Assembly: GCA_019310245.1 (NCBI GenBank)
Contig: JAFDER010000007.1
Coordinates: 1-51,828, forward strand
Source: Deltaproteobacteria bacterium
GTDB taxonomy: Bacteria > Myxococcota_A > Polyangia > DRWM01
Reading direction: 5' to 3'
DNA length: 51,828 nucleotides
Both the position numbers and the translations under genes were made by a program. Shown piece by piece: positions 19,235 through 45,697 of this stretch. Within the stretch, counting starts at the first letter, position 1. Every line of letters begins with the position of its first letter. The notes under the pieces were generated by a model. That model did not search any database and was not told the DNA's origin. It was given only the letters and a program-made list of their open reading frames with translations.

Positions 19235-20509
19235 ATGAAGAGACGGATCACGCGCAGGAGGTTCATCGTGCGCGGCACGTGCGCCGCAGGAGGCCTGCTG
19301 GCCACGGCGTTCGTGCCGGGGTGCAGGGACAAGGGAGGCTGCGCCGAGGTGCTGCCCGAGCAGCCTCCACCGCAGCTGCCGCCGCCCGTCGAGTTCACCT
19401 ACGTCGAGGGCTCGACCGCCGCGTTCCCCTACCTCGAGGTCTCCGGCAACCCGCGCGAGGTGGGCAAGGCCATCGGCAAGCGTTTCGGCGGTCTCATCCG
19501 CAAGGGCCTCGACCGCCGCATGGAGTGGTTCAAGAAGATCCGGGACTACGCCACGGGCGAGGGGCTAAGCGCCTACGAGATCTTCGTCGACGCGGCGCGC
19601 AAGCACACGCCACGCGCGCTCGCCGAGCTCGAGGGCTGGGCCGAGGGCTCGGGCCTGCCGTTCGAGGACCTCATGGCCCTGAACCTCAAGAGCGAGATGT
19701 CCGAGCTCATCCACCAGAAGACGAAGGAGATGCCGCCGACCGACGAGCAGCAACCCGGCTGCTCCACCATCGTCCTGTCCACGCCCGACCGGCTCTACCA
19801 CCTGCACAACGAGGACGGCCACGACGCCTACGCCGACCTCATGTTCATGCTCAAGGTCAAGCCCGACGAGGGCGTGCCCTACCTGACCCTGTCCTACCCC
19901 GGCATCCTGCCCGGCAACGCGCCGGCACTCAACGCCAGCGGCCTGGTCCAGACCACGAACTTCATCAGCTCGCGCGAGGTGCGCCCCGGCGTGGGCCGCT
20001 ACTTCCTCGACCGGATGATCCTCGAGGCGAAGTCCATCGAAGAGGCCCTCAAGTGGGCCACGCACCCCGAGCGCGCCTTCGCCTTCCATCACGTCTTCTC
20101 CTCTCTTCCGGAGAGGAAGGCCGTGGCCGTGGAGGTCACGGCCACGAAGAAGGAGGTCAGGCCCATCAGCGGCCTGTACTTCCACACGAACCATCTCGTG
20201 TTCGAGACCATGAAGGACGAGGAGCAGGACGAGGAGTACGTCTCCACGTCGTCGACGAACCGCTACGAGGTGCTGGACGCCTGGCACCGGGCCCTCGAGG
20301 ACCCCGCCGCGCTGGGGCGCACGAGCCTGCTCGAGCCTCTCTCCTCCCACGAGCGCAAGCCCTGGAGCCCCTGCCGCCACCCCGAGGGCGACGTGCACGG
20401 CTACACCCTGGCCACGGCCGTGTTCGAGGCCCCCGCCGGGACCATGCGCGTCTCCAGGGGCCAGCCCTGCCTCGAGCGCTGGATGGAGTACGAGCAGCCG
20501 GCTTCCTAG
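19235..20509 (+). CDS. Tat-signal lipoprotein, peptidase C45 / acyl-CoA:6-APA acyltransferase-like Ntn hydrolase
   Basis: Twin-arginine ITRRRFIVRG plus lipobox VPGC. Putative autoprocessing/nucleophile site QQPGCSTIVL followed by LHNEDGHD, as in C45-family proteins. Starts 4 nt after the ABC ATPase stop. Confidence 0.6.
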   Translation: MKRRITRRRFIVRGTCAAGGLLATAFVPGCRDKGGCAEVLPEQPPPQLPPPVEFTYVEGSTAAFPYLEVSGNPREVGKAIGKRFGGLIRKGLDRRMEWFKKIRDYATGEGLSAYEIFVDAARKHTPRALAELEGWAEGSGLPFEDLMALNLKSEMSELIHQKTKEMPPTDEQQPGCSTIVLSTPDRLYHLHNEDGHDAYADLMFMLKVKPDEGVPYLTLSYPGILPGNAPALNASGLVQTTNFISSREVRPGVGRYFLDRMILEAKSIEEALKWATHPERAFAFHHVFSSLPERKAVAVEVTATKKEVRPISGLYFHTNHLVFETMKDEEQDEEYVSTSSTNRYEVLDAWHRALEDPAALGRTSLLEPLSSHERKPWSPCRHPEGDVHGYTLATAVFEAPAGTMRVSRGQPCLERWMEYEQPAS

Positions 20510-21758
20510 CGGCGCCCCATCAAGTCCTGAGCGGCGTGCAGCGCGTTGGCCATGCGCTCGGCGAGGTGGAGCGCGCCGGTGAATCCGAGGAAGGGCGTGT
20601 CCGTGAGCACGTGGTGCGAGGTCGACGGCACGCCCAGCTCGACCACGGCCATGCGAGGCCGGAAGATGGGCGTGTACTCGCCGCTGCACATCACGAGGTC
20701 GTCCGGCCCGGCGCCGGCCTCCCGGAGCAGGTGGTAGGGATCGCCGACCACGGGCTCGCACACCACCCGAGCATCGATCGCGACGTCGTCGAGATGCCCC
20801 TGCCTTCCCTTGACCACCGCGATCCTGACGCGCATCCCCAGGTCCGTGCACAGGCCGGCGAGGCCCTCGAGCATGTGCGGGTCGCAGACGAGGTGCGCGG
20901 ACCGGCCCAGGAAGTAGAAGGGGATCGTGCGCTCGAGCCTCTCCGCCGCGCGGCCGATCTCCTCGTCGATGAACGCCCGTGCGCGCTTCTCGCGGCCGAG
21001 GGCCCCGGCGACCGCCTCGATCCACTTCCTCGTCCCCTCGAGCCCGATCGGGACGCCCGTCTGGACGACCCGCGCCCCCGTCATGCCGGCCACGATGCGG
21101 GCGGCCTCGCGGCCATAGGGCAGGGAGATGATCGCGTCGGCGCGGCCGACCTCGTCGAGGTCCTTCCACGCGACGCCGCCGGGCCAGACCGACACGAGCG
21201 TGAGCCCGAGCGCCCCGAGCATCCGCCCGAGCTCGGCGAGGTTGCCCCGCTGGTCGCCCTCGCCACGGTCCATCATGTGGCCGACGATTGCCACGGCGTT
21301 GCGCTCCCGACGATCACCGAGCTCCTTGTTCCTCGCGACCGCGGCCAGGGTCTCGGCGTAGCCGTCGAGCCAGTCGCCGCCGTCCCGGCGACGATCCGGT
21401 CGTACTGCACGCCCGTGATCCCGCACAGGGGCATGGAGGTCAGGAGCACCGCCCCTGCCTGCTCGTGCGCTGCCCTCTCGATGGCCCCGGTCACCTCGGC
21501 CTCCCGGTTCCAGGAGACGTTCTGCGCGTTGGTGCCGGTGAACAGGATGCGGTGCCTCCCGTCGACCCTGTAGAGCGTGGAGGTCCAGTCGTGCCTGCCG
21601 TGTATGAACTGCCCCTTGAAGTGCGCGCAGTCGGGGCCGTCGACCACGAGCCAGACGTCGTCGATCGCGTTCACCGCGATGTAGACGCCCATGAGGTACG
21701 GTAGGTTGTGCCTCAGGCCGTGGGGGAACACGTCCGAGCTGTCAGTGCGTCCGGCCAT
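20506..21758 (-). pseudogene. Nitrogenase component-1-like subunit (NifK/NifN/BchB-like) with an apparent 1-nt frameshift near 21380-21392
   Basis: The N-terminal half lies in ORF 21273..21893 (MAGRTD...VVDGPDCAHFKG...LTSMPLCGITGVQYDRIV). The C-terminal half lies in ORF 20506..21426 (DGGDWLDGYAETLAAVARN...AIVGHMMD...). The span of 1253 nt is not a multiple of 3. The switch falls at a CCCGGCG/GCCGCC run. Confidence 0.6.
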
Positions 21759-23369: not shown

Positions 23370-24203
23370 TCACCTCGAGAATTCCCGGCGCGACAGCTCG
23401 TAGAACGTCTTGTCGTCCATGGGCGTCGGAGGCTCGATCCTCGCGGGATCGATCCGGAGCACCTTGCGCGCGAGCTTGCCCAGGTTCTTCACCGTCTCGC
23501 AGTCCGGGGCGTGCTCGGCCAGCGTGAGTCTCCTGTACTCCGCCTTCCTGAACCGCGCGTCCCGCCTCAGCGTGGCCACCACCCTCGTCTTCAGCTTCCG
23601 GGCGAAGCGCCCGATCATCCTCTCGTCGGCCTTCGCGTCCTTGAGGTTCGCGACGAGCCCGCCCAGCACCACCCCGTTGGGGGCGCAGTTGACCACCGCG
23701 CGCGCGATGTTGTTGGCCGCGTACAGGCTCATGAGCTCGTCGGAGACCACGATGAAGACCTTCTCGCCGAAGCCCTTGCGGAGCGGCGTGGCGAAGCCTC
23801 CGCACACGATGTCGCCCAGCAGGTCGAACAGCACCGTGTCGTAGCCGTTTCGCTCGAGCAGCTCGCTCTCCGTGAAGAACTCGAGCATCCGCGCGATCCC
23901 GCGCCCCGCGCACCCCACGCCGGGTTCCGGCCCCCCCGCCTCGATGCAGTGGATCCCCGAGCGCGCCTCGAGGAGCACGTCCTCGAGCCTCACGTCGTTC
24001 GTCCTGATCAGCTGGTCGATGACCGTGGGGATGTCGGTCCGGCTCATGAGCAGCATCGTGGCGTCGCGCTTGGGGTCGCACCCCACGAACAGCACCTTCC
24101 TGCCCATCTGCGCGTAGATCGTGCTCAGGTTCGTCAGGATGGTGGATTTGCCGATGCCACCCTTGCCAAGGAACACGATCCTCTCGATCCGCTTCTTGCT
24201 CAT
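23370..24203 (-). CDS. NifH/BchL-family ATPase (nitrogenase iron-protein-like)
   Basis: GKGGIGKST (P-loop), VGCDPKRDAT (switch I), GGPEPGVGCAGRGI and DLLGDIVCGGFATPL (both 4Fe-4S Cys ligands retained). Start taken at MSKKRIERIVFL. Confidence 0.85.
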   Translation of the reverse strand: MSKKRIERIVFLGKGGIGKSTILTNLSTIYAQMGRKVLFVGCDPKRDATMLLMSRTDIPTVIDQLIRTNDVRLEDVLLEARSGIHCIEAGGPEPGVGCAGRGIARMLEFFTESELLERNGYDTVLFDLLGDIVCGGFATPLRKGFGEKVFIVVSDELMSLYAANNIARAVVNCAPNGVVLGGLVANLKDAKADERMIGRFARKLKTRVVATLRRDARFRKAEYRRLTLAEHAPDCETVKNLGKLARKVLRIDPARIEPPTPMDDKTFYELSRREFSR

Positions 24204-24222
24204 GGGTTCTGCCGTTGTATCA

Positions 24223-24228
24223 ATTATA
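24223..24228 (-). promoter_or_regulatory. Perfect TATAAT hexamer 19 nt upstream of the NifH-like ATG (candidate -10 box)
   Basis: The minus strand reads ...GACGGCC TATAAT TGATACAACGGCAGAACCC ATG. No convincing -35 and no SD. A consensus A/T hexamer is conspicuous in this G+C-rich DNA. Confidence 0.25.
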
Positions 24229-24319
24229 GGCCGTCGCGTGAAGCGCGGGTGCTTCCGGAGAATAATCCTAGCGAAACGGGGTTTGTAGCCGTCAGGAGGG
24301 CGGGCACCGCGGAAAAGGC

Positions 24320-25363
24320 ATGAAGAAGAGGCTCGCATTCCTCGCGCTCTCGCTCCTGGTCCACGCGGGCCTTCTCTCGGTGATCCTGCTCGTCGGGCCT
24401 CCGGTGATCGAGGGTGATCCCGGGCTGATCGTCCACTACGTCGAGACCGGGGCCCGGCCCGAGGCCGCGCCGCCGCCCACGGAGCCCTCACCGCCTGACA
24501 TGCCGGAGCCGCGCCCCGCGCGCCGGCAGGTGAGTCATTCTTCACCCGAGACCGTCATCGAGGTCGAGCCTCCTGCGGCGCCTCCAGCGCCGGCCCCGGC
24601 CGCCGGGAAGACGAAACCGCAGTTCAGGTCGAATCCCTTCAAGCTCTCCTACGAGGTGCTCTCGGAGACACTCGGGCCTCTCGAGGTGGAGCAGGGGCCG
24701 CTGGACGTGGACGGCATGCTCGGGGCCTACTTCGACGAGCTCGAGGCGTACAAGACCGTCAGGTACGGCACGTTCGACCCCGGGCTCCTGACGCTCCGCG
24801 ACGGCATGGAGGACTTCTGGCACCCCGACTTCGGGCAGATCCACGACAGCCCGCTCAAGGGCGCGGTGGGCAAGATGCTCGCGAGCTGGCAGAAGACGGC
24901 GCAGACCTACGGGCATACCGGCTCACCCGTCGAGGATCCGCCCACGAACCAGTTCTACGGAGACATGAAGCCGCAGGACCTGGGCATTCTTGACACGTAC
25001 GAGCAGCTGGAGAAGTCGGACGCGTTCACGACGCGTGCCAGGCTCGTCGTGCGCATCGACTTCGACGGCAAGGGAGGCTGGAAGGTCGAGAAGCTCTCGG
25101 GATCGGGGTACTCGGAGGTGGACCACGCCGCGATGGAGGCCGTGCACGAGGCCCTCGAGGCGCACGACGACCTCGTGCCGGGGTACGAGGCGAGGACCAG
25201 GTGGGCGCTCGAGGCGGACTTCACGGTCCTGCCGCCGCTGCCCGTCGCGGGTTTTACCTTCGACCTCGCGCTGGGCGTGTTCGAGACGGCCTATCCCCTC
25301 AAGAAGACGGTCAGGCGCAGGATCAAGCTCCTGGCCGTGGCCCTGCCACAGCCCGAGGCATAG
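24320..25363 (+). CDS. TonB-like membrane-anchored protein (tentative)
   Basis: N-terminal TM helix LAFLALSLLVHAGLLSVILLV. Pro-rich spacer (PEAAPPPTEPSPPDMPEPRP, EPPAAPPAPAPA). The C-terminal block VVRIDFDGKGGWKVEKLSGSGYSEVDHAAMEAVHEA resembles TonB_C. Confidence 0.5.
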   Translation: MKKRLAFLALSLLVHAGLLSVILLVGPPVIEGDPGLIVHYVETGARPEAAPPPTEPSPPDMPEPRPARRQVSHSSPETVIEVEPPAAPPAPAPAAGKTKPQFRSNPFKLSYEVLSETLGPLEVEQGPLDVDGMLGAYFDELEAYKTVRYGTFDPGLLTLRDGMEDFWHPDFGQIHDSPLKGAVGKMLASWQKTAQTYGHTGSPVEDPPTNQFYGDMKPQDLGILDTYEQLEKSDAFTTRARLVVRIDFDGKGGWKVEKLSGSGYSEVDHAAMEAVHEALEAHDDLVPGYEARTRWALEADFTVLPPLPVAGFTFDLALGVFETAYPLKKTVRRRIKLLAVALPQPEA

Positions 25364-27316: not shown

Positions 27317-28072
27317 CTAGGTGGAGGCGAGGATGGCGGCGCCCAGGGCCGCGACGCACCGGGGCTCCTCGGGCACGTGGACGTCGGTGGACAGGCCGCG
27401 GGCGACGAGATCGACCATGCAGGCGTTGAGGGCCACGCCTCCGACGAACATCACGCCGGGCTCGACGCGGACCCTCTGCATCATCGAGACGGTGCGGCGG
27501 GCAGTGGCCTCGTGGATCCCCAGGGCCACGTCCTCGCGCGCCATGCCGCGCGCCACCATGGAGACTACCTCCGACTCCGCGAACACGGTGCACATCGAGT
27601 TGATCTCGACCGGTGACGACGTGGCCGTGGCCGCGGCCACGGCCGCGGCCACGAAGTCGCGCATCGAGAAGCCGAGCGCCGTGGCGATCACCTCGAGGAA
27701 CCGGCCCGTGCCCGCGGCGCACCTGTCGTTCATCTCGAACTTGCGCACCTTCCCGCTCTCGTCGAGGCACACGGCCTTGGTGTCCTGACCGCCGATGTCC
27801 AGGATCGTCCGGCACTCGGGCCTCAGCCGGCCGGCGCCCACGCTCACGGCCTTGATCTCGCTCACCGCCTCGCATCCGAGGTACGTGACGGCCAGCCTTC
27901 TTCCGTAGCCGGTCGCGACGAGGCGGTCGTACCCGACGCCCTCGAGCAGGCCCGAGACCTGCGAGACCGGGTCGTGCGTCGTCTCCGCGATCCGGGAACG
28001 CGCGATCCGCCCGCCCTCGATCACGACGAGCTCGATCGAGCGCGAGCCGATGTCGATGCCCGCGGCCCGCAC
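27317..28072 (-). CDS. BadF/BadG/BcrA/BcrD-type ATPase: activase of a 2-hydroxyacyl-CoA-dehydratase-family enzyme
   Basis: AGIDIGSRSIELVV (ASKHA phosphate-1), ILDIGGQDTK, NDRCAAGTGRFLE (cluster Cys), VFVGGVALN. GTG start at 28072, 2 nt after the upstream stop. Confidence 0.85.
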   Translation of the reverse strand: MRAAGIDIGSRSIELVVIEGGRIARSRIAETTHDPVSQVSGLLEGVGYDRLVATGYGRRLAVTYLGCEAVSEIKAVSVGAGRLRPECRTILDIGGQDTKAVCLDESGKVRKFEMNDRCAAGTGRFLEVIATALGFSMRDFVAAAVAAATATSSPVEINSMCTVFAESEVVSMVARGMAREDVALGIHEATARRTVSMMQRVRVEPGVMFVGGVALNACMVDLVARGLSTDVHVPEEPRCVAALGAAILAST

Positions 28073-28074
28073 GC

Positions 28075-29358
28075 TCAGCCCTCGATCCGTTCCACGAACG
28101 CCTCGACCCGCGTGCGGATCTGCTCCACGTCCTCCTGCGAGTAGTCCGTGTCGATGCGCAGGACCGGGATCCCGTCCTTCTCGAGCGCCCGCTCCACCGG
28201 CCCTGCCTCGATCTGGTACGGGTGGCAGAACTGCAGCCCGTAGTGGATGACGCCGTCGGCCTTCAGATCCTTCGCCATCTCGCGCACGTGCTCGAGCCTG
28301 CCCGGGTTGGGAGTGAACACGGCGCAGTCGATCTCGAAGTAGCGGTCCACGATGTTCTCGACGAGCGCCTCCACGCTGCCGCCGGAATCGTCCACCAGGT
28401 TCCGGGTGCCCCTCTCGCCCACGCACGACTCCTCGCCCACGATCACCGCCTTCGTGGAGCTCTCCACGATGTGAGGCACCTTCCAGTTCGGGATGGCCAT
28501 GGGGCAGCCGCTCATCAGGATGCGCGGCGCGCCCTTCGGCCTGACGCCCTGGCCGGCCTCGATCCGCTTCTCGAGCTCGTCGCAGATCTTGTTGATCGAG
28601 TCGGTGAAGCGCGGCGGGTCGTCGTAGAAGGAGATCTGGTTCGCCAGGAGCGCGTCCAGCCCCGAGATGGGGGCGGGATCGGCGGCCCGCAGCCTCGAGA
28701 GCCTGTGCAGGGCCCCGCGCTTCCCGTTCACGGTCCGGATGCCCTCCCTGAGCGAATCGACCGTGATCGTCCTGCCCGAGACGTCCTCGAGCTTCTTCAG
28801 GAACTTGACGTACTCGCTCCTCAGGATGGCCCGTCCCTCCTCGCTCTTCATCTGCGGCATGTCCATGACGAAGAGGTCGCTGACGTGCTCCGCGAAGATC
28901 TCGTACGCCTTCTTCTTGCCGTCGCAGGTGTTCTCCCCCACGATGAGGTCGCTTGCCAGCATGTACGGGCACACCTTCCCGAGCTGGAAGCCGAAGAAGC
29001 CCTTGATGAGCGAGCAGGTGTTGCGCGGCAGGTACCTCTCGGCCTCCTCGAGGCCCCAGGGCGCGCCGGCACACAGGCCGACGCAGATCCCGTGAACGGC
29101 GAGCACGAGCTCCTCGGGCACGAAGACGCAGAAGGTGCCCACCACCTTCCTGCCCTCCGCCCGGGCGTCCACGAGCTCCTTGATCCTGAGGCCGTGCACC
29201 TCCGTGATCACGAAGTCGAGGTACTTCATGCCCTCGGGCCGGTTCTCCTGGCTGTGGTACACGTCCTTGTAGCCCTGTCCGAGGACCTGCATGAGCGTGT
29301 CGTGGGCCTCGAGATCGATCCCGAGCTCTTCCCACATGGGACGGTAGTCTGTCGACAT
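28075..29358 (-). CDS. 2-hydroxyacyl-CoA dehydratase family protein (single-subunit, YjiM / double-cubane-cluster-protein-like)
   Basis: Typical HGD-D-family blocks VGTFCVFVPEELV, GENTCDGKKKAYE, ILMSGCPMA, VIHYGLQFCHPY and many conserved Cys. SD GGGAGG before the ATG at 29358. Confidence 0.8.
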   Translation of the reverse strand: MSTDYRPMWEELGIDLEAHDTLMQVLGQGYKDVYHSQENRPEGMKYLDFVITEVHGLRIKELVDARAEGRKVVGTFCVFVPEELVLAVHGICVGLCAGAPWGLEEAERYLPRNTCSLIKGFFGFQLGKVCPYMLASDLIVGENTCDGKKKAYEIFAEHVSDLFVMDMPQMKSEEGRAILRSEYVKFLKKLEDVSGRTITVDSLREGIRTVNGKRGALHRLSRLRAADPAPISGLDALLANQISFYDDPPRFTDSINKICDELEKRIEAGQGVRPKGAPRILMSGCPMAIPNWKVPHIVESSTKAVIVGEESCVGERGTRNLVDDSGGSVEALVENIVDRYFEIDCAVFTPNPGRLEHVREMAKDLKADGVIHYGLQFCHPYQIEAGPVERALEKDGIPVLRIDTDYSQEDVEQIRTRVEAFVERIEG

Positions 29359-31821: not shown

Positions 31822-33942
31822 TTGGCTGAGGCGGTGCAGCTCAAAGCTTACGGTCGCGTCGATCTCGACGGCACTCACAGGGCGGTCGTCGAGGCGGACT
31901 GGCCGGAGATTCCAACCACGGGGGACGACTCCCGGACAACCTACCTCGAGCTCGAAAGCGGAGGCATGAGCTGTGCCGTCCTGCTGAGCGAGCACAGAAG
32001 CTCGACCGAGGGCAGGATCTACCTCGACCGCTACAAGCAGTGGCACCTCGGAATCCGCGACGGGGATCCGGTGCACGTGCGCGTGGCCACGCCGGAGCAG
32101 GCCGGCAAGGTGGTGCTGAGGGTCCCGGCCAACTTCTCCAGGCGCGACGTGGTGCGCTTCATCGGAAAGCCGCTGACGCGCGGCGAGAAGACGGCGCTCT
32201 ACACGTTCGGCGGCGATGCGCGCCTGATCGAGGTCGCCGAGGCGGGCCCGGGCAGGATCGTGGTGGTCGCCCCGTCCTCGGACGTGAGGACCACAACCTC
32301 GCAGGTCGATGACGTGCCGGTCACGTACAAGGACATCGGCGGCCTCGGCAGGGAGGTGGAGCGGATCCGCGAGGTGGTGGAGTATCCGTTCCGGTTTCCG
32401 GAGCTGTTCCAGCACCTGGGTGTGTCGCCTCCGCGCGGCATCATCCTGAGCGGCCCGCCCGGAACGGGCAAGACGCTCATCGCCAGGGCGCTCGCCAACG
32501 AGTCCGGGGCGCGGTTCTTCTCAGTGAGCGGCCCGGAGATCTACTCCAAGTGGTACGGCAAGAGCGAGGAGAACCTCAGGAACATCTTCGCAAGCGCCGT
32601 GCGCGACGCCCCCTCCATCGTGGTGATCGACGAGCTGGATGCGCTCGTTCCGATCAGGGAGAAGACTCACGGCGATCAGGAGCAGAGGATCGTCGCCACG
32701 TTCCTCACGCAGATGGACGGGCTGAAGGAGATGAAGGACGTGGTCGTGGTGGGCACGACCAACCGGATCGACGCGATCGACCCCGCGCTCAGGCGCGGAG
32801 GACGGTTCGAGTGCGAGGTCCACATCGGCGTGCCGGACGAGGCGGGCCGGCAGGAGATCCTGGCCATCCACTCCCGCAGGATGCCGCTGGGGCCGGACGT
32901 GGACCTCGGGCAGGCGGCGTCCATGTCGTCGGGGTTCACGGGTGCCGATCTCGCGTCGCTGTGCCGCGAGGCGGCCTACTCCGCACTCAGGAGGGTGTTT
33001 CCGGGTCTGTCCACGGAGGGCGGGGAGCTCGACGGGCTCGACCGGCTCGAGGTGTGTCAGTCCGATTTCGAGAAGGCGCTCTCCTCGGTCCCCCCGTCGG
33101 CCCTCAAGGAGTTCCTCATCGAGATCCCCGCGGCGGGCTGGGACGACGTGGGAGGGCACGGGGAGACGAAGAAGCTCCTCGTCGAGAACATCTGCTACGC
33201 CGTCACACGGCGCGAGGCGTTCCGCAGCGCCGGCATCGAGCCGGCGAAAGGCATCCTTCTCTACGGGCCTCCCGGCACGGGCAAGACGCTCCTCGCGAGG
33301 GCCGTGGCGAGTGAGTGCGGCGCGCAATTCATCGCGCTCAGGGGCCCGGAGATCCGCTCGAGGTGGCTGGGGGAGTCCGAGGAGCGGATCAGGCAGCTGT
33401 TCAAGAAGGCCCGCACCGTTGCTCCCTGCGTGATCTTCATCGATGAGATCGACGCCGTGGTGCCGGCGCGCGGCGGGTCACCCTCGAGCTCCACCGACGG
33501 GGTCGTCAACCAGCTCCTCGCTGAGATGGACTCCATCGAGGGCGGGGCGGGCGTGTGCATCGTCGGGGCCACGAACCGGATCGGGATCCTCGATCCCGCC
33601 GTTCTCAGGCCGGGCCGCTTCGACTGCCTCGTGGAGGTGGGCCTGCCGGACGGGCGCGACAGGGAGGAGATCTTCGCCGTGCACGTGCGCGGCAAGCCCC
33701 TGGCACCCGACGTGGATCTCGCCCTGCTCGCGGCCCTGACCGAGGGCCTGTCCGGAGCCCAGATCGCGGAGATCTGCCGGCTGGCCGCGTGGTCGTCGCT
33801 CAGGGAGGCGGGATTCGAGGCAGAGGGCCTCGTCGTCGCCGCGGGCCACTTCGGCAGCGCGCTCGAGCGCGTCCGCAGCACAGCGGACGGGGTGGCACGC
33901 TTGCTCAGGGTCGTGGCCGCGGGTGGGGAGGACGGAACATGA
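31822..33942 (+). CDS. Cdc48/VCP-like AAA+ ATPase (N-domain plus two AAA modules)
   Basis: N-domain GRIYLDRYKQWHLGIRDGDPVHVRV. D1 has GPPGTGKTLIARALA and VVIDELD. D2 has GPPGTGKTLLARAVA and IFIDEID. Both carry SRH-like GRF(E/D) motifs. The start is TTG 31822 or GTG 31834, after AAGGAGG at 31811-31817. The stop overlaps the next ATG. Confidence 0.85.
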   Translation: MAEAVQLKAYGRVDLDGTHRAVVEADWPEIPTTGDDSRTTYLELESGGMSCAVLLSEHRSSTEGRIYLDRYKQWHLGIRDGDPVHVRVATPEQAGKVVLRVPANFSRRDVVRFIGKPLTRGEKTALYTFGGDARLIEVAEAGPGRIVVVAPSSDVRTTTSQVDDVPVTYKDIGGLGREVERIREVVEYPFRFPELFQHLGVSPPRGIILSGPPGTGKTLIARALANESGARFFSVSGPEIYSKWYGKSEENLRNIFASAVRDAPSIVVIDELDALVPIREKTHGDQEQRIVATFLTQMDGLKEMKDVVVVGTTNRIDAIDPALRRGGRFECEVHIGVPDEAGRQEILAIHSRRMPLGPDVDLGQAASMSSGFTGADLASLCREAAYSALRRVFPGLSTEGGELDGLDRLEVCQSDFEKALSSVPPSALKEFLIEIPAAGWDDVGGHGETKKLLVENICYAVTRREAFRSAGIEPAKGILLYGPPGTGKTLLARAVASECGAQFIALRGPEIRSRWLGESEERIRQLFKKARTVAPCVIFIDEIDAVVPARGGSPSSSTDGVVNQLLAEMDSIEGGAGVCIVGATNRIGILDPAVLRPGRFDCLVEVGLPDGRDREEIFAVHVRGKPLAPDVDLALLAALTEGLSGAQIAEICRLAAWSSLREAGFEAEGLVVAAGHFGSALERVRSTADGVARLLRVVAAGGEDGT

Positions 33943-35291
33943 GCCGCGCCATGGCAGCGCTCGCCTCCCTGGCCCTGTGCCTCGGCGGCGCGGCCGCCTC
34001 GGGGGCCGCGGCTCCCGTCGAGCTGGACATCGTCATCCTCGTTGACACCTCGGAGTCGATGCAAGGATTCGGCAAGCAGGCCCTGGCCGGGTTCGCGGAC
34101 GGGCTGGGAGGCTCGAGCCGCATGGCGCTTGCCACGTTCGGAGAGGAGGCCCGGATGGTGCGGCCGCTCAGGACCGTGACGGGCAAGGACCGGGCCAGGT
34201 TGATGAAGTCCATCAGCACGCTCTCCTTCTCCTCGAGCTTCAAGGACATGGAGGGCGGCCTCACCCTCGCGCTCTCGCATCTCGTTCTTCACGCGAGGCC
34301 CGGAGCGGTGCGGGCGGTGGTGCTCGTCACCAACGGCGACGTGCTTCCGTCCGCCGGGCCCGGGACGGCGGAGGACATCGTCAAGCAGCTCACGGACGGG
34401 ATCCTGTACGAGTACCTCGTCGAGGAGATCCCGGTCCACACGGTGGCCTTCGGAGCCTCGGACGTCGATCTCATGCAGGACATCGGGTCGAGCACGGGAG
34501 GCAAGAGCCTCGTGGCGCCCGACGCGATCGCGCTCAATGACGCGCTGTCGCTGCTCTCGGCGACGCTAGCTCCCGCCGCGCCGGAGCAGCCCGCGCCCGT
34601 CCTGGCAGCCGTCGCCCGGGACAGGCCTGCGGAGTCGGACGCGAGGATGGCGTCCACGCTCGTGGCCGCGGCCGGAGGCGCCGCGGCCCTCGCGCTCGTC
34701 ATGGGCATGCTCGTGCTCGCGCTCCTGCTCGTCAACACGGTCCGGCTCGGCGCCCTGGTCAGGAGCCAGCCGCCGGCGGAGCCGAAGGGCGCCTCCGCGC
34801 CCGGCGCCTTCGCGGGCCTGCGCAAGAAGGCGGGCCGGATCACGAAGCTGCTCATGGAGGCGCGCTCGAGCATCGAGGGCTTCAACGTGGACCTCGAGGA
34901 CTACGCCGCGGAGTCGTGGGAGAAGGAGAAGGAGCTGAGCAACAGGTACCACAGCCTGGCCTCGAGCCTCTTCCTGCTCATCGACAATCTCGAGGTGCAG
35001 GAGAGGAGCGGCGGCGCGGGCGACGGCTCCGACTGGCTGGCCAGGCGAGCGCGCAAGATGCTGGCGAGGGAGGGGATCGAGGAGATCACCGTGAGCGAGG
35101 GCGACTCCTTCGACGGCATGTATCACAAGCACGCCGGAGATCGCGACGACGACCGGCCCGAGGGAGCGGTGCTCGAGGTCACCCGCAAGGGTTACTACGT
35201 CATGGGCGTCTCGCCGGACGGGGACGACATCATCCTGAGGCACGCGGAAGTCGTCGTGAGCCGCGGCAATGCAAGGCGCAGGGCGGGATGA
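33939..35291 (+). CDS. Fusion protein: signal/anchor, VWA domain, TM helix, coiled coil and GrpE-like C-terminal domain
   Basis: MSRAMAALASLALCLGGAAASG. VWA motifs VILVDTSESM...VLVTNGD. TM helix LVAAAGGAAALALVMGMLVLALLLV. The C-terminus GIEEITVSEGDSFDGMYHKHAG...VLEVTRKGYYVMG...ILRHAEVVVS aligns by eye with the GrpE beta-domain. ATGA overlap with the AAA+ gene. Confidence 0.8.
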   Translation: MSRAMAALASLALCLGGAAASGAAAPVELDIVILVDTSESMQGFGKQALAGFADGLGGSSRMALATFGEEARMVRPLRTVTGKDRARLMKSISTLSFSSSFKDMEGGLTLALSHLVLHARPGAVRAVVLVTNGDVLPSAGPGTAEDIVKQLTDGILYEYLVEEIPVHTVAFGASDVDLMQDIGSSTGGKSLVAPDAIALNDALSLLSATLAPAAPEQPAPVLAAVARDRPAESDARMASTLVAAAGGAAALALVMGMLVLALLLVNTVRLGALVRSQPPAEPKGASAPGAFAGLRKKAGRITKLLMEARSSIEGFNVDLEDYAAESWEKEKELSNRYHSLASSLFLLIDNLEVQERSGGAGDGSDWLARRARKMLAREGIEEITVSEGDSFDGMYHKHAGDRDDDRPEGAVLEVTRKGYYVMGVSPDGDDIILRHAEVVVSRGNARRRAG

Positions 35292-35307: not shown

Positions 35308-37269
35308 ATGTCGAGGGCGATCGGGATAGACCTGGGAACCTACAACTCCGCGGCCTCCGTGGCCCTGGGGCGCAACCGCATCGTCATGGTCGAGAGCAGG
35401 TACGGAAGGACCCTGTACGGAAAGAGCTTCCCGTCCTTCGTGCTGTTCGACAGGCAGGGAGGCAAGCAGATGGTGGGGCAGAGGGCGCGCGAGGAGATGT
35501 CGATCAACCCGGATCTCGTCGTGTGGGGCGTCAAGCGCCTCGTGGGGCTGTCCTACCAGCAGGCGCTCGAGATGGGCGAGCTGTCCAGGTTCTCCTACGG
35601 GATCGAGGAGGGCCCGGGAGGCACCATCCTCATCAATGTGGGCGAGGAACGCTACACCCCCTCACACATCCTCGAGTTCATCCTCAGGGAGATCAAGGAG
35701 GACGCCGAGAACCCGAGGGTCAACCCCACGCTGGGAGGTCCCGTGGACGGGGCGGTCATCTCCATCCCGGCCTACTTCAAGGCCATCCGGACGGGGCCGA
35801 TCGTCGAGGCGGCCCGGCGGGCCGGGTTCGAGGAGGTGGACACCATCGCCGAGCCGACCGCTGCGGCCATCCAGTATTGCCTGGAGATCGACAGGGAGGC
35901 CAACCTGCTCGCCTTCGACATCGGAGCGGGCACGCTGGACGTGACGGTCATGCTGGTGGTCAACGAGCAGGACGAGCTCATTCCGGGCGAGTTGTGCACG
36001 TCCGGACACGAGGCCCTGGGCGGGATCGACATGGACGATGCGATCATCTCCCACGTCATCGAGACGCACGGGCTCTCGTCCCTGCGGCACGACCACACCA
36101 TGATGGCCATCCTCAAGGAGGAGGTTGAGAAGGCCAAGATCCGGCTCTCGTCGAGGACGAGGACGACGATCGAGCTCCCGCAGGGACAGTCCATCACGCT
36201 GACGAGGGACGAGCTGGAGGAGGCGCTCTCTCCGCTGCTGGCTCTCTGCCGCGGTCCGGTGAGGGTGGCCCTGCAGCAGTCCGGGCTCGAGGCCGCCGAC
36301 CTGGATCACGTGCTGTTCATCGGCGGGCCGACGCACATGCCCTGCATCCGGCGCGTGGTGCGCGAGGAGCTCGAGAAGCTCGGCGCGCGCAGCGGCGTTC
36401 TCGACGTGATGGCCGGGATGGAGGGTGGCGGACTGCCCATCGATCCCATGGAGTGCGTGGCCCGCGGCGCATCGCTCAAGGCGGGCAAGATCATCGAGCC
36501 CATCGGCAAGGTGATCGCCGAGGGCTACGGCACAATCTACGGTCCGGTCGACGGATGCGACGATTACTACGAGCCGATCATCAGGGAGAACTCGAACTAC
36601 CCCATCTCGGACAGCTCGGTGCTGTGCCACCCCGATCCGAAGGCGCTCGAGGTCCCCATCCCTCTCGTCGCCAAGCGGCCGGACGTGGAGAGGTCCACGG
36701 CCGAGAAGACCGTCTTCAGGTACGAGTACCTGGGAAACTACACGCTGAGCATCACGCCCACGGGCAAGGTGCCGTCCATCGACGTCATCCTGCAGGTCAC
36801 CGACGACAAGAGGATCGTCGCGAACCTCGTGCATGCCCAGACGCACCAGAAGGTCAGGTTCAAGGGGCTCGATCTGCTGATGGGAGAGGAGATACAGCTC
36901 CAGGAGCACACCCCGCCCGAGCGGTGGACCAAGAAGGACGTGGAGCGGTTCCGGGACACCGTGCGGCACAAGAAGAGCCGCTGGACGCGGACGCACCTCG
37001 AGCACCACATCCACGTGGCACAGGAGGCACTCGCGCTCGTCTCGGGCCCGGACAATGCCAAGGTGGTGGCTGCGATGTCCGAGGTCAGGAGCGCGGTCTC
37101 GAGGCCCGTCGAGAACGAGTACAGGTTCCCGAACGACGACTGTCCCAACATCTCGAACCGGATCAAGGAGCTGCTGGACACGCTCAGGCAGCCCGAGGTC
37201 GGCAAGATCTCCGAGGAGGAATTTCGCCGTTACCTGGACCAGCTCATCACGATCGCGCGGATGGACTGA
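35308..37269 (+). CDS. Hsp70-family chaperone, non-housekeeping paralogue
   Basis: AIGIDLGTYNS, AVISIPAYF, DTIAEPTAAAIQY, LAFDIGAGTLDVTV, LGGIDMDD, FIGGPTHMPCIRR, ECVARGASL, then a beta-sandwich-like and helical C-terminal region. GGAGG lies 5 nt before the ATG. Confidence 0.85.
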   Translation: MSRAIGIDLGTYNSAASVALGRNRIVMVESRYGRTLYGKSFPSFVLFDRQGGKQMVGQRAREEMSINPDLVVWGVKRLVGLSYQQALEMGELSRFSYGIEEGPGGTILINVGEERYTPSHILEFILREIKEDAENPRVNPTLGGPVDGAVISIPAYFKAIRTGPIVEAARRAGFEEVDTIAEPTAAAIQYCLEIDREANLLAFDIGAGTLDVTVMLVVNEQDELIPGELCTSGHEALGGIDMDDAIISHVIETHGLSSLRHDHTMMAILKEEVEKAKIRLSSRTRTTIELPQGQSITLTRDELEEALSPLLALCRGPVRVALQQSGLEAADLDHVLFIGGPTHMPCIRRVVREELEKLGARSGVLDVMAGMEGGGLPIDPMECVARGASLKAGKIIEPIGKVIAEGYGTIYGPVDGCDDYYEPIIRENSNYPISDSSVLCHPDPKALEVPIPLVAKRPDVERSTAEKTVFRYEYLGNYTLSITPTGKVPSIDVILQVTDDKRIVANLVHAQTHQKVRFKGLDLLMGEEIQLQEHTPPERWTKKDVERFRDTVRHKKSRWTRTHLEHHIHVAQEALALVSGPDNAKVVAAMSEVRSAVSRPVENEYRFPNDDCPNISNRIKELLDTLRQPEVGKISEEEFRRYLDQLITIARMD

Positions 37270-37273: not shown

Positions 37274-37879
37274 ATGGTTCCCGCCCAGGGCGCCATGATC
37301 ATCGAGCTCGTGGACGGCTGCCTCTACGAGCAGGCGCTGGGCGTGTCCTTCGACGCGAGCCGGTCGAGCGTGAACCGCAGGCACGTCAAGCTCCTGTACA
37401 GGTTCCTTGACTACCCGTCGGTGCGCGAGGCCCTCAACAGGGCCAAAAGCGTGCTCGCCTCGGAGAAGGGGCTGGACAAGGGCCGCAGGCTCGCGTCCCT
37501 GTCGCGCCATGCCGAGGCGCTGCCCTACCTGCGCGCGGCCGTGCAGGAGGGGGGAGACGTAGAGGATCACGTCCGGCTCGGCCGCGCCCTGGAGCGGCTC
37601 GAGCGGTTCGAGGAGGCCCTGCCGCACTTCGGCCGCGCCGCCTCCGAGCGGGGCCTGGCCATCGACCACCACCGTCTCGGGGCGGCCCTGTTCCATCTCG
37701 GCCGCCTCGATGATTCGCTCCCCCACCTCGAGAGGGCCGTGGAGCTGGGCCACGACATGCTGGACGAGGAGATGCTCATGTCCTGCTGGGAGAGGATCCG
37801 CCTGAGGCGCAGGCGGACGCTCGTCGACAGGGTGCGCGGCCTCGTCGCCGGGCTGCGCGCCTCGCTGGCCGGACGCTAG
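37274..37879 (+). CDS. J-domain-like (HPD-less) N-terminus plus TPR repeats (tentative)
   Basis: LYEQALGVSFDASRSSVNRRHVKLLYRFLDYPSVREALNRAKSVL follows the helix II/III pattern of J domains, but the HPD position reads LDYP. Downstream TPR-like repeats (HAEALPYLRAAVQ, RFEEALPHFGRAAS, RLDDSLPHLERAVE). Starts 4 nt after the Hsp70 stop. Confidence 0.5.
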   Translation: MVPAQGAMIIELVDGCLYEQALGVSFDASRSSVNRRHVKLLYRFLDYPSVREALNRAKSVLASEKGLDKGRRLASLSRHAEALPYLRAAVQEGGDVEDHVRLGRALERLERFEEALPHFGRAASERGLAIDHHRLGAALFHLGRLDDSLPHLERAVELGHDMLDEEMLMSCWERIRLRRRRTLVDRVRGLVAGLRASLAGR

Positions 37880-37920: not shown

Positions 37921-39156
37921 ATGGCCGACCGGACCGATAGCATGGAGTTCGACGAGAGCGGCGTGATCCTGCCGCGCGACGAGAAGCTGCTCGAGTACGT
38001 GCGGTCCAACTCCGGCAGGTGGGTCGCGGTCAGCGCGCAGGACGGGATGCTGCTCCTGCGCAGGGCGGACAAGGGCGGCGGCGGCCGCGTGCTGATGAGC
38101 GGCGAGATCAAGCGCGAGGGCTGGCTCGTCGACATCCTCAGCTTCGTGTGCAACCAGGGGCTCACGGGCAAGATCGTGGTCGTGAGCCGCGACGTCAGGA
38201 GGGAGCTGTTCTTCGACAAGGGGCAGCTGAGGCTGGCGAGCTCGACGGCAACGGGCGATCTGCTCGGCGAGTTCATCCTGAGCGAGGGGCTCATCACCAA
38301 GGAGCAGCTCGACGCGGCGCTCAAGGAGATCGGGCCGGGCAAGAGGCTGGGGCAGGTCCTGGTCGACAAGGGCATCCTGACCCGCCACGACATCTACAAC
38401 CTGCTCAACAAGAAGGTGGAGAAGATCTTCTTCGACGCCATCGTCCTGCACGACGGCGTCTACACCTTCGACGAGGACATCGACCTGTCGAAGCTGCCCG
38501 CCTCGATCAGCATCGACACGAAAACGCTGCTGATGAAGGGCCTGACCAAGAGGGACGAGCTGACCTACTACCGGGAGACGGTACCCAGGCCCGGCGGCAT
38601 GCTCAGCAATCAGCTCAAGGCCCTGGACGCCTGCTCGAGCGTGGAGAAGGACTTCGTCTCCAAGGTCGACGGCTCGAGGACCCTCGCCGAGATCGACGAC
38701 CTGCTGCACCTGGGCGACTTCGAGACCGTCAGGATCGCCCGGAAGCTGGCATCCAAGGGCCTGCTCGTGGTCATCCTCGACAAGGAGATGGAGGCGGATG
38801 CCCTCAGGTCGGTGGTTCACGACTTCAACACCGCCATCCGCGTCATCTACGACGCGATCCAGGGCAGGGTGAAGGCGGACGAGCTGACGGAGCTGGGCAG
38901 GGAGTTCATGAGCAAGAGCACCCAGCAGCTCGAGGGGCCCGAGAAGGTCACCCTCAAGCGGACGGGTGAGTTCGACTTCCACAACGTGATGAGGATCTAC
39001 GAGGCCAGCGAGGCCAGGGAGAAGATGAACCTCATCATCATGGTCCTGAGCAGGTACATCTCCTTCATCCTCTTCACCGCGAACTCATACCTGCCCGTCA
39101 ACGAGCAGGAGAAGCTCTCCTCGAGCGTCTACGGCAATCTCGACGCCTACTCGTGA
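37921..39156 (+). CDS. DUF4388 (PATAN)-domain protein
   Basis: GEIKREGWLVDILSFVCNQGLTGKIVV...RRELFFDKGQLRLA...GDLLGEFILSEGLITKEQLDAALKE...RLGQVLVDKGILTRHDIYNLL is the typical DUF4388 pattern with MshEN-like LG-x-L motifs. Confidence 0.7.
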   Translation: MADRTDSMEFDESGVILPRDEKLLEYVRSNSGRWVAVSAQDGMLLLRRADKGGGGRVLMSGEIKREGWLVDILSFVCNQGLTGKIVVVSRDVRRELFFDKGQLRLASSTATGDLLGEFILSEGLITKEQLDAALKEIGPGKRLGQVLVDKGILTRHDIYNLLNKKVEKIFFDAIVLHDGVYTFDEDIDLSKLPASISIDTKTLLMKGLTKRDELTYYRETVPRPGGMLSNQLKALDACSSVEKDFVSKVDGSRTLAEIDDLLHLGDFETVRIARKLASKGLLVVILDKEMEADALRSVVHDFNTAIRVIYDAIQGRVKADELTELGREFMSKSTQQLEGPEKVTLKRTGEFDFHNVMRIYEASEAREKMNLIIMVLSRYISFILFTANSYLPVNEQEKLSSSVYGNLDAYS

Positions 39157-44590: not shown

Positions 44591-44866
44591 ACCAAGTACC
44601 TACATTGAGCTGGTGGGACCGCACAGGGCGGCCTCTCCTCCCACAGCAGTCAACATGCTACGCGCAGAGTCGTTTTTATCACGAGGCCCATCGGCAGTCA
44701 ATAAAGCCGACGCGAGCCACAGTGAGTGATCTCACCTCCCTAGCTTCACCATGGTATTCTCGGAATTCCAGGAGTGCGCATTACACGAATACTGAACGCA
44801 TCGAGCCGGAAACGTGTTTCATGATCCCGCGGTGCACATGCATGAGGCGGCCGCCGAGTCCTCTCG

Positions 44867-44895
44867 TTGACACCCACCCGAGCCGAACGCATACT
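44867..44895 (+). promoter_or_regulatory. Sigma-70-like promoter candidate TTGACA-17 nt-CATACT just before the redox operon
   Basis: TTGACA at 44867-44872 and CATACT at 44890-44895. The ATG at 44906 has no SD, so the transcript would be leaderless or nearly so. Confidence 0.3.
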
Positions 44896-44905
44896 CACCG
44901 GGCCC

Positions 44906-45697
44906 ATGCAGGTCAGGGTGACAGTGGATGGCAGGGGGGTACGCGCCGAGAGGCACCAGATGCTCCTCGGGCTTCTCCACAGCCTCGGGGTGCGTCTGCC
45001 CACGCTCTGCCACCTCGACGGCCTGAGCCCGTACGGCGCCTGCCGGCTGTGCCTGGTCGAGGTCGCGCGCGGCGGGGGCACGCGCGTCACCACCGCGTGC
45101 AACCTGCCCGTCGAGGATGGAGCCGTCTACACGACGTCGTCGCCGAGGCTGTCCCGCCTCAGGAGGCTCGCGGCCGAGCTCCACCTGGCCCGCTGCCCCG
45201 ACGAGCCGGAGGTCCGCCGCGTCGCCCGGGCTCTCGGGGTCCGCAGGGCGAGGCTGAGGCCCGTGGGCGACACCTGCATCCTGTGCGGCCTGTGCGAGCG
45301 CGTGTGCCGCGAGGTGGTGGGTGCGAGCGCCCTCGGGTTCGAGGGACGGGGAACGTCCCGCGCGCTCGCCAGCGCGTACGGCGAGGTGCCCGAGGAGTGC
45401 ATCGGCTGCGGCGCCTGCTCGTTCGTCTGCCCCACGGGGACGATCCGGATGCAGGAGGCCGCCGTCGAGTCCCTGCGGCGGCTGCCCGGGTCAGAGCGGC
45501 CCTGCCGCCACGCGCTGACGGGGATGATGCCGGCGGCGTTGTGCTCGATGAGCTACCAGTGCGCGTCGTGCGAGGTCGACCAGCGTCTCAGGGAGATCGT
45601 CTCCACGCATCCCGTGCTCGCGCTGGGCAGGGGTCCCGAGGCCCGCCGTCTGGCCGAGTACCTGGTCACGACACGCCGGGGAGCGGGGCGGCCATGA
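44906..45697 (+). CDS. Iron-sulfur protein: NuoG/HndD-N-terminal-like [2Fe-2S] plus two [4Fe-4S] motifs
   Basis: MQVRVTVDG...LPTLCHLDGLSPYGACRLCLVEV...TACNLPVEDG. CILCGLCERVC and CIGCGACSFVCP. Start taken at M14 of ORF 44867..45697. The stop overlaps the next ATG (ATGA). Confidence 0.75.
   Translation: MQVRVTVDGRGVRAERHQMLLGLLHSLGVRLPTLCHLDGLSPYGACRLCLVEVARGGGTRVTTACNLPVEDGAVYTTSSPRLSRLRRLAAELHLARCPDEPEVRRVARALGVRRARLRPVGDTCILCGLCERVCREVVGASALGFEGRGTSRALASAYGEVPEECIGCGACSFVCPTGTIRMQEAAVESLRRLPGSERPCRHALTGMMPAALCSMSYQCASCEVDQRLREIVSTHPVLALGRGPEARRLAEYLVTTRRGAGRP

Follow-up and report, generated by a model that had tools for sequence, protein, structure and literature searches.

The window analysed here, a stretch of 51,828 nucleotides from a Deltaproteobacteria bacterium (assembly GCA_019310245.1, contig JAFDER010000007.1), carries a conserved four-gene operon whose second gene, hereafter gene 2, encodes a GrpE-like domain joined to a membrane anchor and a VWA domain. 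The operon consists of a Cdc48-like AAA+ ATPase, the anchored GrpE, a divergent Hsp70 and a tetratricopeptide repeat (TPR) protein, with lengths given in amino acids (aa):

31822..33942, forward strand: gene 1, Cdc48/VAT-like AAA+ ATPase with N-domain, D1 and D2 (TIGR01243, E = 4e-210; two PF00004 matches)
33939..35291, forward strand: gene 2, bitopic membrane protein of 450 aa with signal peptide, VWA domain, transmembrane (TM) helix and GrpE-like domain
35308..37269, forward strand: gene 3, divergent Hsp70 of 653 aa (PF00012, E = 9e-67)
37274..37879, forward strand: gene 4, TPR protein of 201 aa with a conserved N-terminal domain (TPR_1 and TPR_2 matches)

Gene 2 starts at ATG 33939 with GGAGG upstream at 33927-33931, and the two genes share 4 bp where the AAA gene ends (ATGA). 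Its GC content at third codon positions is typical for genes of the window and codon-position GC is uniform along the open reading frame (ORF). The product is identical to P0001, which stands at NCBI as 'MAG: nucleotide exchange factor GrpE [Deltaproteobacteria bacterium]'; the assignment to the GrpE family is thus not new, as the NCBI pipeline already names such proteins 'nucleotide exchange factor GrpE'. A preliminary description, made from the sequence alone, had read this 450-aa ORF as a hydrophobic N-terminus, a VWA domain, an Ala/Pro linker, a single TM helix, a charged helical stretch and a GrpE block, and it had recognised the Hsp70 gene downstream. Every one of these elements could be located, the charged stretch being helical (aa 292-377). 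The AlphaFold model of the full product (11 homologues in the alignment; mean predicted local distance difference test, pLDDT, of 71) places helices at aa 235-275, 292-315, 323-356 and 364-377, followed by six short strands, and leaves aa 273-291, which are poorly conserved, at a pLDDT below 50. The layout of gene 2 is as follows:

33939..34013, forward strand: signal-peptide-like N-terminus, aa 1-25 (MSR, a hydrophobic core, then ...SGAAA; 10-residue Kyte-Doolittle maximum 2.41)
34023..34568, forward strand: predicted extracytoplasmic VWA domain, aa 29-210, with a partial metal-ion-dependent adhesion site, MIDAS (Pfam, AlphaFold, Foldseek)
34659..34733, forward strand: TM helix, aa 241-265 (19-residue Kyte-Doolittle mean 2.69; within the predicted helix aa 235-275)
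34734..34853, forward strand: predicted cytoplasmic juxtamembrane linker, aa 266-305 (aa 266-289 variable, aa 290-305 conserved)
34806..34853, forward strand: conserved basic/hydrophobic juxtamembrane motif AFAGLRKKAGRITKLL, aa 290-305 (family alignment)
34812..35069, forward strand: GrpE-like helical stalk and helical-bundle region, aa 292-377 (Pfam GrpE from aa 328; AlphaFold helices)
35070..35261, forward strand: GrpE-like beta-domain or 'wing', aa 378-441 (six predicted strands, pLDDT ~85-92)

In the family alignment R295 and L304 of the juxtamembrane motif are invariant, while F291, L294, K296, K297, A298 and L305 are at least 90% conserved. This motif is a highly conserved hydrophobic core between basic residues and sits where canonical GrpE carries a disordered, substrate-competing N-terminal tail; it could act as a pseudo-substrate for the substrate-binding domain of Hsp70. 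Further on, the stalk region includes DLEDYAAESW, where canonical GrpE has (A)DFENYRKR, as well as LFLLIDNLE, and the beta-wing reads G-I-E-E-I...G-D-x-F-D-G-x-Y-H...R-K-G-Y...L-R-H-A-E-V-V-V-S.

Over its positions 51-164 of 165 the GrpE profile PF01025 matches aa 328-441 (E = 4.7e-10); with 39.8 bits the match clears the gathering score of 25.8, and relatives score 37-45 bits against the same profile. The NCBIfam GrpE equivalog models give ~17 bits, so far below their cut-offs of 164-194 that the product is not an orthologue of the housekeeping GrpE. When the whole-protein model was compared with the Protein Data Bank (PDB) by Foldseek, GrpE was swamped by VWA structures (E ~1e-10), and aa 266-450 were therefore modelled alone (AlphaFold, pLDDT 73). 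With this model all 11 hits at E values of 7e-7 to 2e-4 were GrpE or GrpEL1 (structures 9a81, 1dkg, 3a6m, 4ani, 9bls and 9blt; probability 1.0; TM-score 0.36-0.56), the twelfth match lying at E = 0.8. The likeness that had been drawn by eye for the residues after the TM helix thus reappears in the fold comparison, and MAFFT recovers the alignments on which it had rested, namely LLPVIDSLDRAL/LFLLIDNLEVQE, GVEVI...HQAI/GIEEI...HKHAG and KGY.../KGY...LRHAEVVV, the E. coli GrpE sequence having been checked against PDB 1dkg. A canonical GrpE of 205 aa encoded beside dnaJ in a Chthoniobacterales metagenome-assembled genome (MAG) is 30% identical to aa 318-443 (tblastn), which supports the assignment independently. 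It came from a genome scan whose degenerate peptide patterns were narrow, so that the two loci returned tell little about distribution.

Residue conservation, compared between 14 canonical and 26 anchored GrpEs, is concentrated in the wing. At 16 of the 19 beta-domain columns with a conservation of at least 70% among canonical GrpEs, the anchored clade has the same consensus residue, including G379, G388, F391, D392, H396, K417, G418, Y419, R434 (E. coli R186), A436, V438 and V440, so that the motifs G-[VI]-E-x-I, G..FD, H, KGY and R-x-A-x-V-x-V are all kept. Across phyla, no other part of the anchored protein is conserved as well as the beta-wing. In GrpE this domain makes the main contact with subdomains IB and IIB of the nucleotide-binding domain (NBD) of DnaK and wedges the cleft open (PMC4753570, PMC10803776).

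The architecture recurs in a sizeable family. A word-index search returned 12 homologues besides the window protein at 40-92% identity, 10 of them full-length with the same architecture and 2 truncated. The C-terminal-domain profile was searched against 1.84 billion cluster representatives (clusters at 50% identity) and matched 601 proteins at E<=1e-3, of which 88 pass E<=1e-10 and 34 pass E<=1e-30; from E ~1e-9 onward the list holds soluble proteins of the usual GrpE length, canonical-looking ones appearing at E ~1e-9 to 1e-7. The best 150 profile matches and the 13 word-index proteins were then scanned for architecture with two domain hidden Markov models and a hydropathy window. The commonest architecture, hydrophobic N-terminus, VWA, TM and GrpE, is carried by ~37 full-length representatives of 405-493 aa. 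Beside it stand ~9 representatives of 300-330 aa with four TM helices ahead of the GrpE domain, a set of 200-260-aa proteins with a single N-terminal TM helix and the GrpE domain, and two proteins, P0046 and P0049, whose ectodomains ahead of the GrpE domain match nothing. Since the window comes from a MAG, one may ask whether the ORF is an assembly chimera or a mis-called frame joining a VWA gene to grpE. The VWA-GrpE representatives stem from NCBI, JGI, ENA and Logan assemblies, that is, from independent samples and assemblers, and 37 of them show the same continuous full-length architecture, the 12 closest with identities of 40-83%; the linker, TM helix and juxtamembrane motif that form the junction are themselves conserved in relatives, and codon-position GC is uniform. 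Mis-assembly, which the preliminary description had named as a danger, is excluded by this recurrence in independent assemblies, and an artefact of any kind is scarcely conceivable.

The topology proposed at the outset, with the VWA domain outside and the GrpE domain inside, is also what the family predicts. Among the VWA-form representatives, all 37 have the central TM helix, and in 36 of them the N-terminus consists of 0-4 basic residues followed by a hydrophobic segment; within 15 residues of this helix, lysine plus arginine average 1.2 before and 3.3 after it (net charge -0.24 versus +2.4; 37 representatives), a positive-inside pattern that predicts a cytoplasmic GrpE domain and an outside VWA domain. 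The even number of TM helices in the four-TM form agrees with a cytoplasmic GrpE domain, and in all architectures the GrpE side is predicted to be cytoplasmic. Judged from these predictions, what stays constant in the family is that the GrpE domain is anchored in the membrane; the ectodomain is interchangeable and sensing by a VWA domain is not constant.

The ectodomain of the window protein matches PF00092 (VWA) above its gathering score at aa 30-196 (E = 2e-12), VWA_2 and VWA_3 match too, and residues 29-210 are modelled as a confident VWA fold (pLDDT ~85-93). The full-length family profile returned VWA entries only among PDB sequences, and the best sequence match to a solved VWA structure is the Vibrio 'membrane spanning protein' 4rck (E = 3e-5). 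With Pfam, AlphaFold and Foldseek in agreement, the VWA fold noticed earlier with its DxSxS (DTSES, aa 36-40) and VLVTNGD (aa 128-134) motifs holds. The MIDAS keeps D36, S38 and S40, but K102 replaces the Thr and N132 of 'TNG' the last Asp, leaving the DxSxS...T...D signature incomplete. It had been suggested that the Thr corresponds to 'EGGL'; this was misplaced, for both the 4rck alignment and a 38-member VWA alignment put it at the residue before the invariant D103, i.e. at K102 of 'FKD'. Within the clade of the window protein the Thr position is K or T and the Asp position N, D, S or G, while distant VWA relatives such as P0031, P0052 and P0079 have a full DxSxS...T(D/N)...(S/T)DG. The complete site in several distant relatives suggests that the ancestral ectodomain probably bound its ligand through a metal, while the site of the window protein is incomplete.

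These features bear on the idea that ligand binding by the VWA domain alters the packing of a TM-stalk dimer or helix and thereby switches nucleotide exchange on the cytoplasmic Hsp70. Such transmembrane signalling has some appeal: the GrpE stalk follows the TM helix in one chain, the canonical GrpE stalk is a regulatory thermosensor (PMC4753570, PMC8215388), a complete MIDAS in most VWA-bearing relatives (P0031, P0052 and P0079, for example) suggests genuine metal-dependent ligand binding across the wider family, and the VWA form, with ~37 representatives, is the commonest architecture. We nevertheless hold it to be unlikely, because the same operon occurs with a four-TM bundle, a bare anchor or other ectodomains, because the MIDAS Thr and Asp are both lost in the clade of the window protein, because no ligand is identifiable, and because aa 273-291, variable and with a pLDDT below 50, would be a poor conduit for a piston or rotation signal and argue against rigid signal transmission. 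Of the earlier reading, a genuine VWA-TM-GrpE protein beside an Hsp70 gene therefore stands, whereas the coupling of an envelope binding event to the ATPase cycle of Hsp70 is not supported as the core logic, given the swapped ectodomains, the degenerate MIDAS and the variable, low-pLDDT linker. That reading had overlooked the Cdc48-like AAA+ ATPase and the TPR protein as operon partners, and likewise the loss, in both the GrpE stalk and the partner Hsp70, of features on which canonical GrpE-DnaK pairs depend.

Gene 2 is the second gene of a four-gene operon that is widely conserved and translationally coupled. Eleven loci were examined (the window, L001, L002/L003, L004/L005, L006-L008, L012, L013/L014, L015, L017, L018 and L019). 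In all 11 the Hsp70 gene comes immediately after the anchored-GrpE gene, the two often overlapping by 4 bp, and encodes 653-667 aa where complete; the AAA gene lies ahead of the anchored-GrpE gene wherever the contig reaches. On the contig of L012 the GrpE and Hsp70 genes stand alone, as it is too short for flanks, and in 9 of the 10 other loci a gene follows the Hsp70 gene. The five close loci (window, L001, L002, L004 and L006), together with L013 and L017, share the N-domain of gene 4 (YEEALG...R..V...H..L) and its RG...D..WLG..L..LGR..EALP.L repeats; the gene 4 product of L015 shares the repeat type but not the N-domain, and the corresponding genes of L018 and L019 have faint TPR matches only. 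The form of the anchored GrpE varies among the loci: the VWA form occurs in L013/L014, which is low-GC-type sequence, the four-TM form in L012 and L015, the one-TM form in L017, from a MAG labelled Actinomycetota, and an ectodomain of no recognised family in L018. The MAG labels (NCBI) comprise Deltaproteobacteria, Myxococcota and Actinomycetota, in addition to one contig, the 1.49-Mb L015, which is probably archaeal since it encodes Alba and FrhB homologues. Upstream of the four-TM GrpE of L015, short genes are called at 4560-7971, two with AAA or AAA-lid matches (84 and 166 aa) and three more (123, 200 and 214 aa) with no Pfam match; they could result from long-read frameshift errors or represent a pseudogene. 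Across the 11 loci no conservation extends beyond the four genes. A promoter and terminator scan gave nothing above chance.

Gene 1 of the window likely starts at TTG 31822, with AAGGAGG at 31811-31817, and homologue N-termini align from this codon, the mechanical ORF beginning at 31723. Its translation has both Walker A motifs (GPPGTGKT), both Walker B motifs (DE) and the aromatic pore loops KWYG and RWLG, and homologues match the CDC48_2 N-domain, above the gathering score in L013. From these motifs the AAA+ protein looks active.

A parts list of AAA+, VWA, Hsp70, GrpE and TPR recalls the NTPase, VWA and Hsp70/GrpE conflict systems of Kaur et al. 2020 (PMC7159879), the AAA protein of gene 1 matches IetA and TRIP13 models of PADLOC, and L013 and L018 have transposase genes close to the cassette, so that a component of an anti-phage or other conflict system could be envisaged. 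The PADLOC matches are, however, to the generic AAA only, the anchored GrpE, Hsp70, TPR and DUF4388 proteins finding no match in PADLOC-DB v2. No effector gene (nuclease, protease, toxin or pore) was found in any of the 11 loci, and the cassette is bordered by housekeeping genes, among them rpsB-tsf-pyrH-frr and argS. The systems of Kaur et al. are moreover centred on a GAP1-N2-GTPase, occur in Actinobacteria and Firmicutes and are arranged differently (PMC7159879). Taken together, a role in conflict is very improbable.

The partner Hsp70 encoded by gene 3 shares 29% identity with E. coli DnaK and 27% with E. coli HscC; it scores 240 bits on the NCBIfam DnaK equivalog model, whose cut-off is 648, and falls far below the HscA cut-off too. 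The catalytic residues D8, K70, E171, D194, T199 and D201 are invariant in five operon Hsp70s, from which the protein looks active. In the operon Hsp70s the J-domain contacts are changed (R167 to D, N170 to A) and the linker VLLLD has become VIAEG. The gene 3 Hsp70 has no deletion at DnaK positions 76-101 and, at 653 aa, is longer than the 550-580 aa of the HscC type. The changed features and low scores thus indicate that it is of neither the DnaK, the HscA nor the HscC type. Its C-terminus, IA(R/D)(M/V)D-COOH, is conserved in the five close Deltaproteobacteria/Myxococcota-type loci and is reminiscent of the EEVD tail to which eukaryotic TPR co-chaperones bind; such a tail is not a general feature of the operon, being missing in the Hsp70s of L013 and L015.

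With the identities, folds, topology indicators, operon organisation and residue conservation described above, we favour, at a probability of roughly 0.6, that the gene 2 product is dedicated to the operon Hsp70, as an exchange factor or docking site tethered to the membrane. We infer from them its binding to this Hsp70, its exchange activity and dimerisation, the cooperation with the AAA+ protein and the nature of the substrates. A Sec-type signal peptide would export the VWA domain and the single TM helix would anchor a type-I inner-membrane protein, leaving the GrpE domain facing the cytoplasm, where it would probably dimerise through the stalk and TM helices, as GrpE does. The beta-wing would bind the NBD of the operon Hsp70 and so dock the chaperone on the cytoplasmic face of the membrane, where release of ADP would most likely be promoted. 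As the end of the stalk, preceded by AFAGLRKKAGRITKLL, would be tied to the membrane, the substrate-binding domain of the bound Hsp70 would be held next to the bilayer. It is tempting to hypothesise that Hsp70, together with the AAA+ unfoldase and the TPR scaffold, would then make up a machine close to the membrane for the remodelling or extraction of proteins; neither ubiquitin-like machinery nor proteasome or translocon genes are found in the operon. The VWA domain would be an accessory module of one sub-family, which may localise or regulate the machine through a periplasmic or envelope partner.

Several observations weigh against a tethered exchange factor. The AlphaFold models rest on shallow alignments of 9-11 sequences, and their mean pLDDT of 71-73 corresponds to moderate confidence. 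The C-terminal family profile finds GrpE among PDB sequences at E = 0.21 only, a weak sequence signal that would not have sufficed by itself; the identity of the domain is settled by the Pfam profile together with the search on the predicted fold. The basic stalk patch of canonical GrpE, N71-x-R73-K/R74-R75, is replaced in the anchored clade by D-Y-(A/G)-A-E-x-W, the gene 2 product having D321, A323, A324 and E325 at these positions and W327 being invariant. In Mycobacterium tuberculosis, whose N71/R73/K74/R75 correspond to N71/R73/R74/R75 of E. coli within a basic patch R64-R86, this patch touches subdomain IA and the substrate-binding domain of Hsp70, and its mutation abolishes exchange, binding and refolding (PMC10803776); one defining functional feature of canonical GrpE is consequently absent. 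Neither G122, the site of grpE280 (G122D), nor P151 is conserved in the anchored clade, and the hairpin that bears R183 in E. coli has an insertion of 6-8 residues. On the Hsp70 side, dependence of DnaK on GrpE involves the 284-295 loop of subdomain IIB, the K55/R56-E264/E267 salt bridges and the L257 hydrophobic patch (PMC8215388). In the operon Hsp70s the nine residues 284-292, overlapping the 'GrpE signature' region, are deleted, R56 has become E or Q and L257 A or T; K55 (as R), E264 and E267 remain. The signature is likewise missing from HscA and HscC, neither of which uses GrpE (PMC8215388). The partner Hsp70 may thus release ADP quickly unaided and, with these features lost, may need no exchange factor.

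The same losses could mean that the GrpE-like domain is a pseudo-exchange factor, which only docks Hsp70 at the membrane in the manner of Tim44 or inhibits it by holding one state: the basic stalk patch, G122 and P151 are lost, and an Hsp70 devoid of the signature loop, R56 and L257 resembles HscA and HscC (PMC8215388). Yet the cleft-wedging beta-wing is precisely the best-conserved part across phyla, and a pure tether would not need so strict a surface, for which reason we regard this possibility as rather doubtful. The losses on the two sides of the interface look like co-evolution, and would equally allow a mainly docking role. Some soluble proteins of ~190-210 aa (P0109, P0155 and P0158) have a Trp at the RKR patch, a one-residue stalk deletion and the hairpin insertion as in the anchored GrpEs; soluble members of a non-canonical GrpE clade thus seem to exist.

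The N-terminal ~70 aa of gene 4 (37274..37480), reading 'YEEALGVxFDAxRxxVNRxHVRLLHRF...VRxALNRAKS', resemble helices I-II of a J-domain, and the resemblance extends to L001, L002, L004, L006, L013 and L017. Compared with six J-domains by hhalign, this N-domain gives a weak match confined to helices I-II (probability 17%, E = 1.5e-3). None of six gene 4 homologues has the HPD motif, and there is no Pfam match to DnaJ. The missing HPD fits the loss of R167 and N170 in the partner Hsp70, and the two proteins may be a co-evolved J-like/Hsp70 pair.

Downstream of the four genes, 41 nt after the TPR gene, begins a further gene that may be co-transcribed with it:

37921..39156, forward strand: DUF4388/PatA_N protein with an MshEN-type cyclic di-GMP-binding motif (PF14332, E = 1.3e-18; NF053729, E = 3e-13)

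The NF053729 motif lies at aa 115-164. The gene follows the cassette in L006 and L007 but is missing from L001, L002, L004, L013 and L017-L019, and is accordingly lineage-specific and outside the core. In three relatives of 40-44% identity (L001 14050-21377, L002 14059-21080 and L004 6758-12852), the cassette has rpsB-tsf-pyrH-frr on one side and, on the other, a convergent PilY1/minor-pilin (N_methyl) cluster, and in L001 and L002 a PilB-like MshEN/T2SSE ATPase gene is found upstream. The cassette may be linked to type IV pili, or the synteny may be coincidental. The window itself is ordinary chromosomal sequence with genes for argS, a sigma factor, HGD-D, NifH-like, Ser/Thr kinase, PEGA and PAS-kinase proteins. 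About 2.5 kb upstream of the operon, at 27317..29358 on the reverse strand, are genes for a 2-hydroxyacyl-CoA dehydratase (HGD-D) and a BcrAD/BadFG-type activase, and in the Actinomycetota-labelled MAG a 1427-aa BcrAD+HGD-D fusion lies divergently beside the AAA gene (L017 212-4495, reverse strand); this proximity is probably a coincidence. Four window ORFs, 9698..11806 (forward, 702 aa), 6789..7916 (reverse, 375 aa), 12799..13743 (reverse, 314 aa) and 24320..25363 (forward, 347 aa), have gene-like codon-position GC and no Pfam-A match at E<=1e-5. Oxidored_nitro (nitrogenase-component-1-like) and NifH/frxC-like genes at 20506..21426 and 23370..24545, both on the reverse strand, and heterodisulfide-reductase/MvhD-like Fe-S flavoproteins at 44605..50651 suggest that the source organism lives anaerobically.

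Known systems share parts of this arrangement. In the mitochondrial import motor (mtHsp70, Tim44, Pam16/Pam18, Mge1/GrpEL1), Hsp70 is held at the membrane through anchored cofactors, together with a GrpE-family factor and a J-like protein devoid of HPD; its GrpE homologue is soluble, however, Tim44 being the tether, and homology is shown for GrpE and Hsp70 only. As in the DnaK-ClpB and Cdc48/p97 extraction systems, an Hsp70 is encoded here with a double-ring AAA+ unfoldase, of the Cdc48/VAT type and with aromatic pore loops, but gene 1 is not ClpB and has no M-domain, and any cooperation of the two ATPases is putative. In MoxR-VWA and Bat operons an AAA+ ATPase is likewise encoded with membrane VWA proteins and a TPR protein. 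These operons are not known to include Hsp70 or GrpE, whereas the AAA+ protein of the present operon is of Cdc48 type rather than MoxR, and its VWA domain is predicted to lie across the membrane from the ATPase (compare 4rck and 3ibs, BatB). Canonical GrpE (E. coli, T. thermophilus, human GrpEL1) has the same fold order of long helix, short helices and six-stranded beta-wing, the wing motifs G-[VI]-E-x-I, F-D, H, K-G-Y and R-x-A-x-V-x-V in common, and an adjoining Hsp70 gene. The gene 2 product differs in its membrane anchor and extracytoplasmic domain, in a partner that is not a DnaK-type Hsp70, and, as a family, in D-Y-A-A-E-x-W for N-x-R-K-R, the G122 and P151 that are not kept and the 6-8 residue insertion at R183. 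The E. coli HscC locus with DjlB/DjlC and Sel1 likewise joins a specialised divergent Hsp70 to an inner-membrane co-chaperone and TPR-like repeat genes (PMC8215388), but there the anchored cofactor is a J-protein and not an exchange factor, HscC neither uses GrpE nor has an AAA+ partner, and the window Hsp70, 27% identical, does not have HscC's deletion of DnaK 76-101. GrpS/SglK of M. xanthus was considered as a counterpart and set aside, GrpS being one of only two M. xanthus GrpEs with a GrpE domain alone (PMC10313047), and so were the conflict systems of Kaur et al. and the CoCoNuT associations of Hsp70, VWA and Cdc48, whose arrangements are different.

No description of a VWA-GrpE fusion, of a membrane-anchored GrpE or of this operon was found in the full-text literature searched, most subscription journals lying outside its coverage. 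The reviews consulted treat GrpE as a soluble stand-alone cofactor, recognise DnaK, HscA and HscC as the prokaryotic Hsp70 types and leave the DnaK paralogues of complex bacteria unexplained (PMC8215388). The GrpE described here is, by contrast, integrated into the membrane, carries outside domains that vary, and always has as its partners an Hsp70 of a distinct kind, a Cdc48-like unfoldase and a TPR protein. Its family spans several phylum labels of MAGs and includes a genome that is probably archaeal. If the proposed role is correct, prokaryotes would position the Hsp70 cycle at the membrane by means of an exchange factor, as a mirror image of E. coli HscC/DjlC and of the mitochondrial import motor, and Hsp70 would be linked to a Cdc48-type ATPase outside eukaryotes. 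The most far-reaching version, in our view improbable, is that the operon constitutes a previously unrecognised membrane-proximal chaperone machine, made of a fourth prokaryotic Hsp70 type, a membrane GrpE and a Cdc48-like unfoldase, in which, for the VWA sub-family, binding on the outside gates the Hsp70/AAA+ cycle; this would amount to transmembrane signalling by a co-chaperone rather than a kinase. The operon also offers a natural experiment in the co-evolution of the GrpE-Hsp70 interface, with the stalk patch lost, the hairpin longer and the IIB loop deleted, and provides a testable case for the role of the many unexplained DnaK paralogues in complex bacteria.

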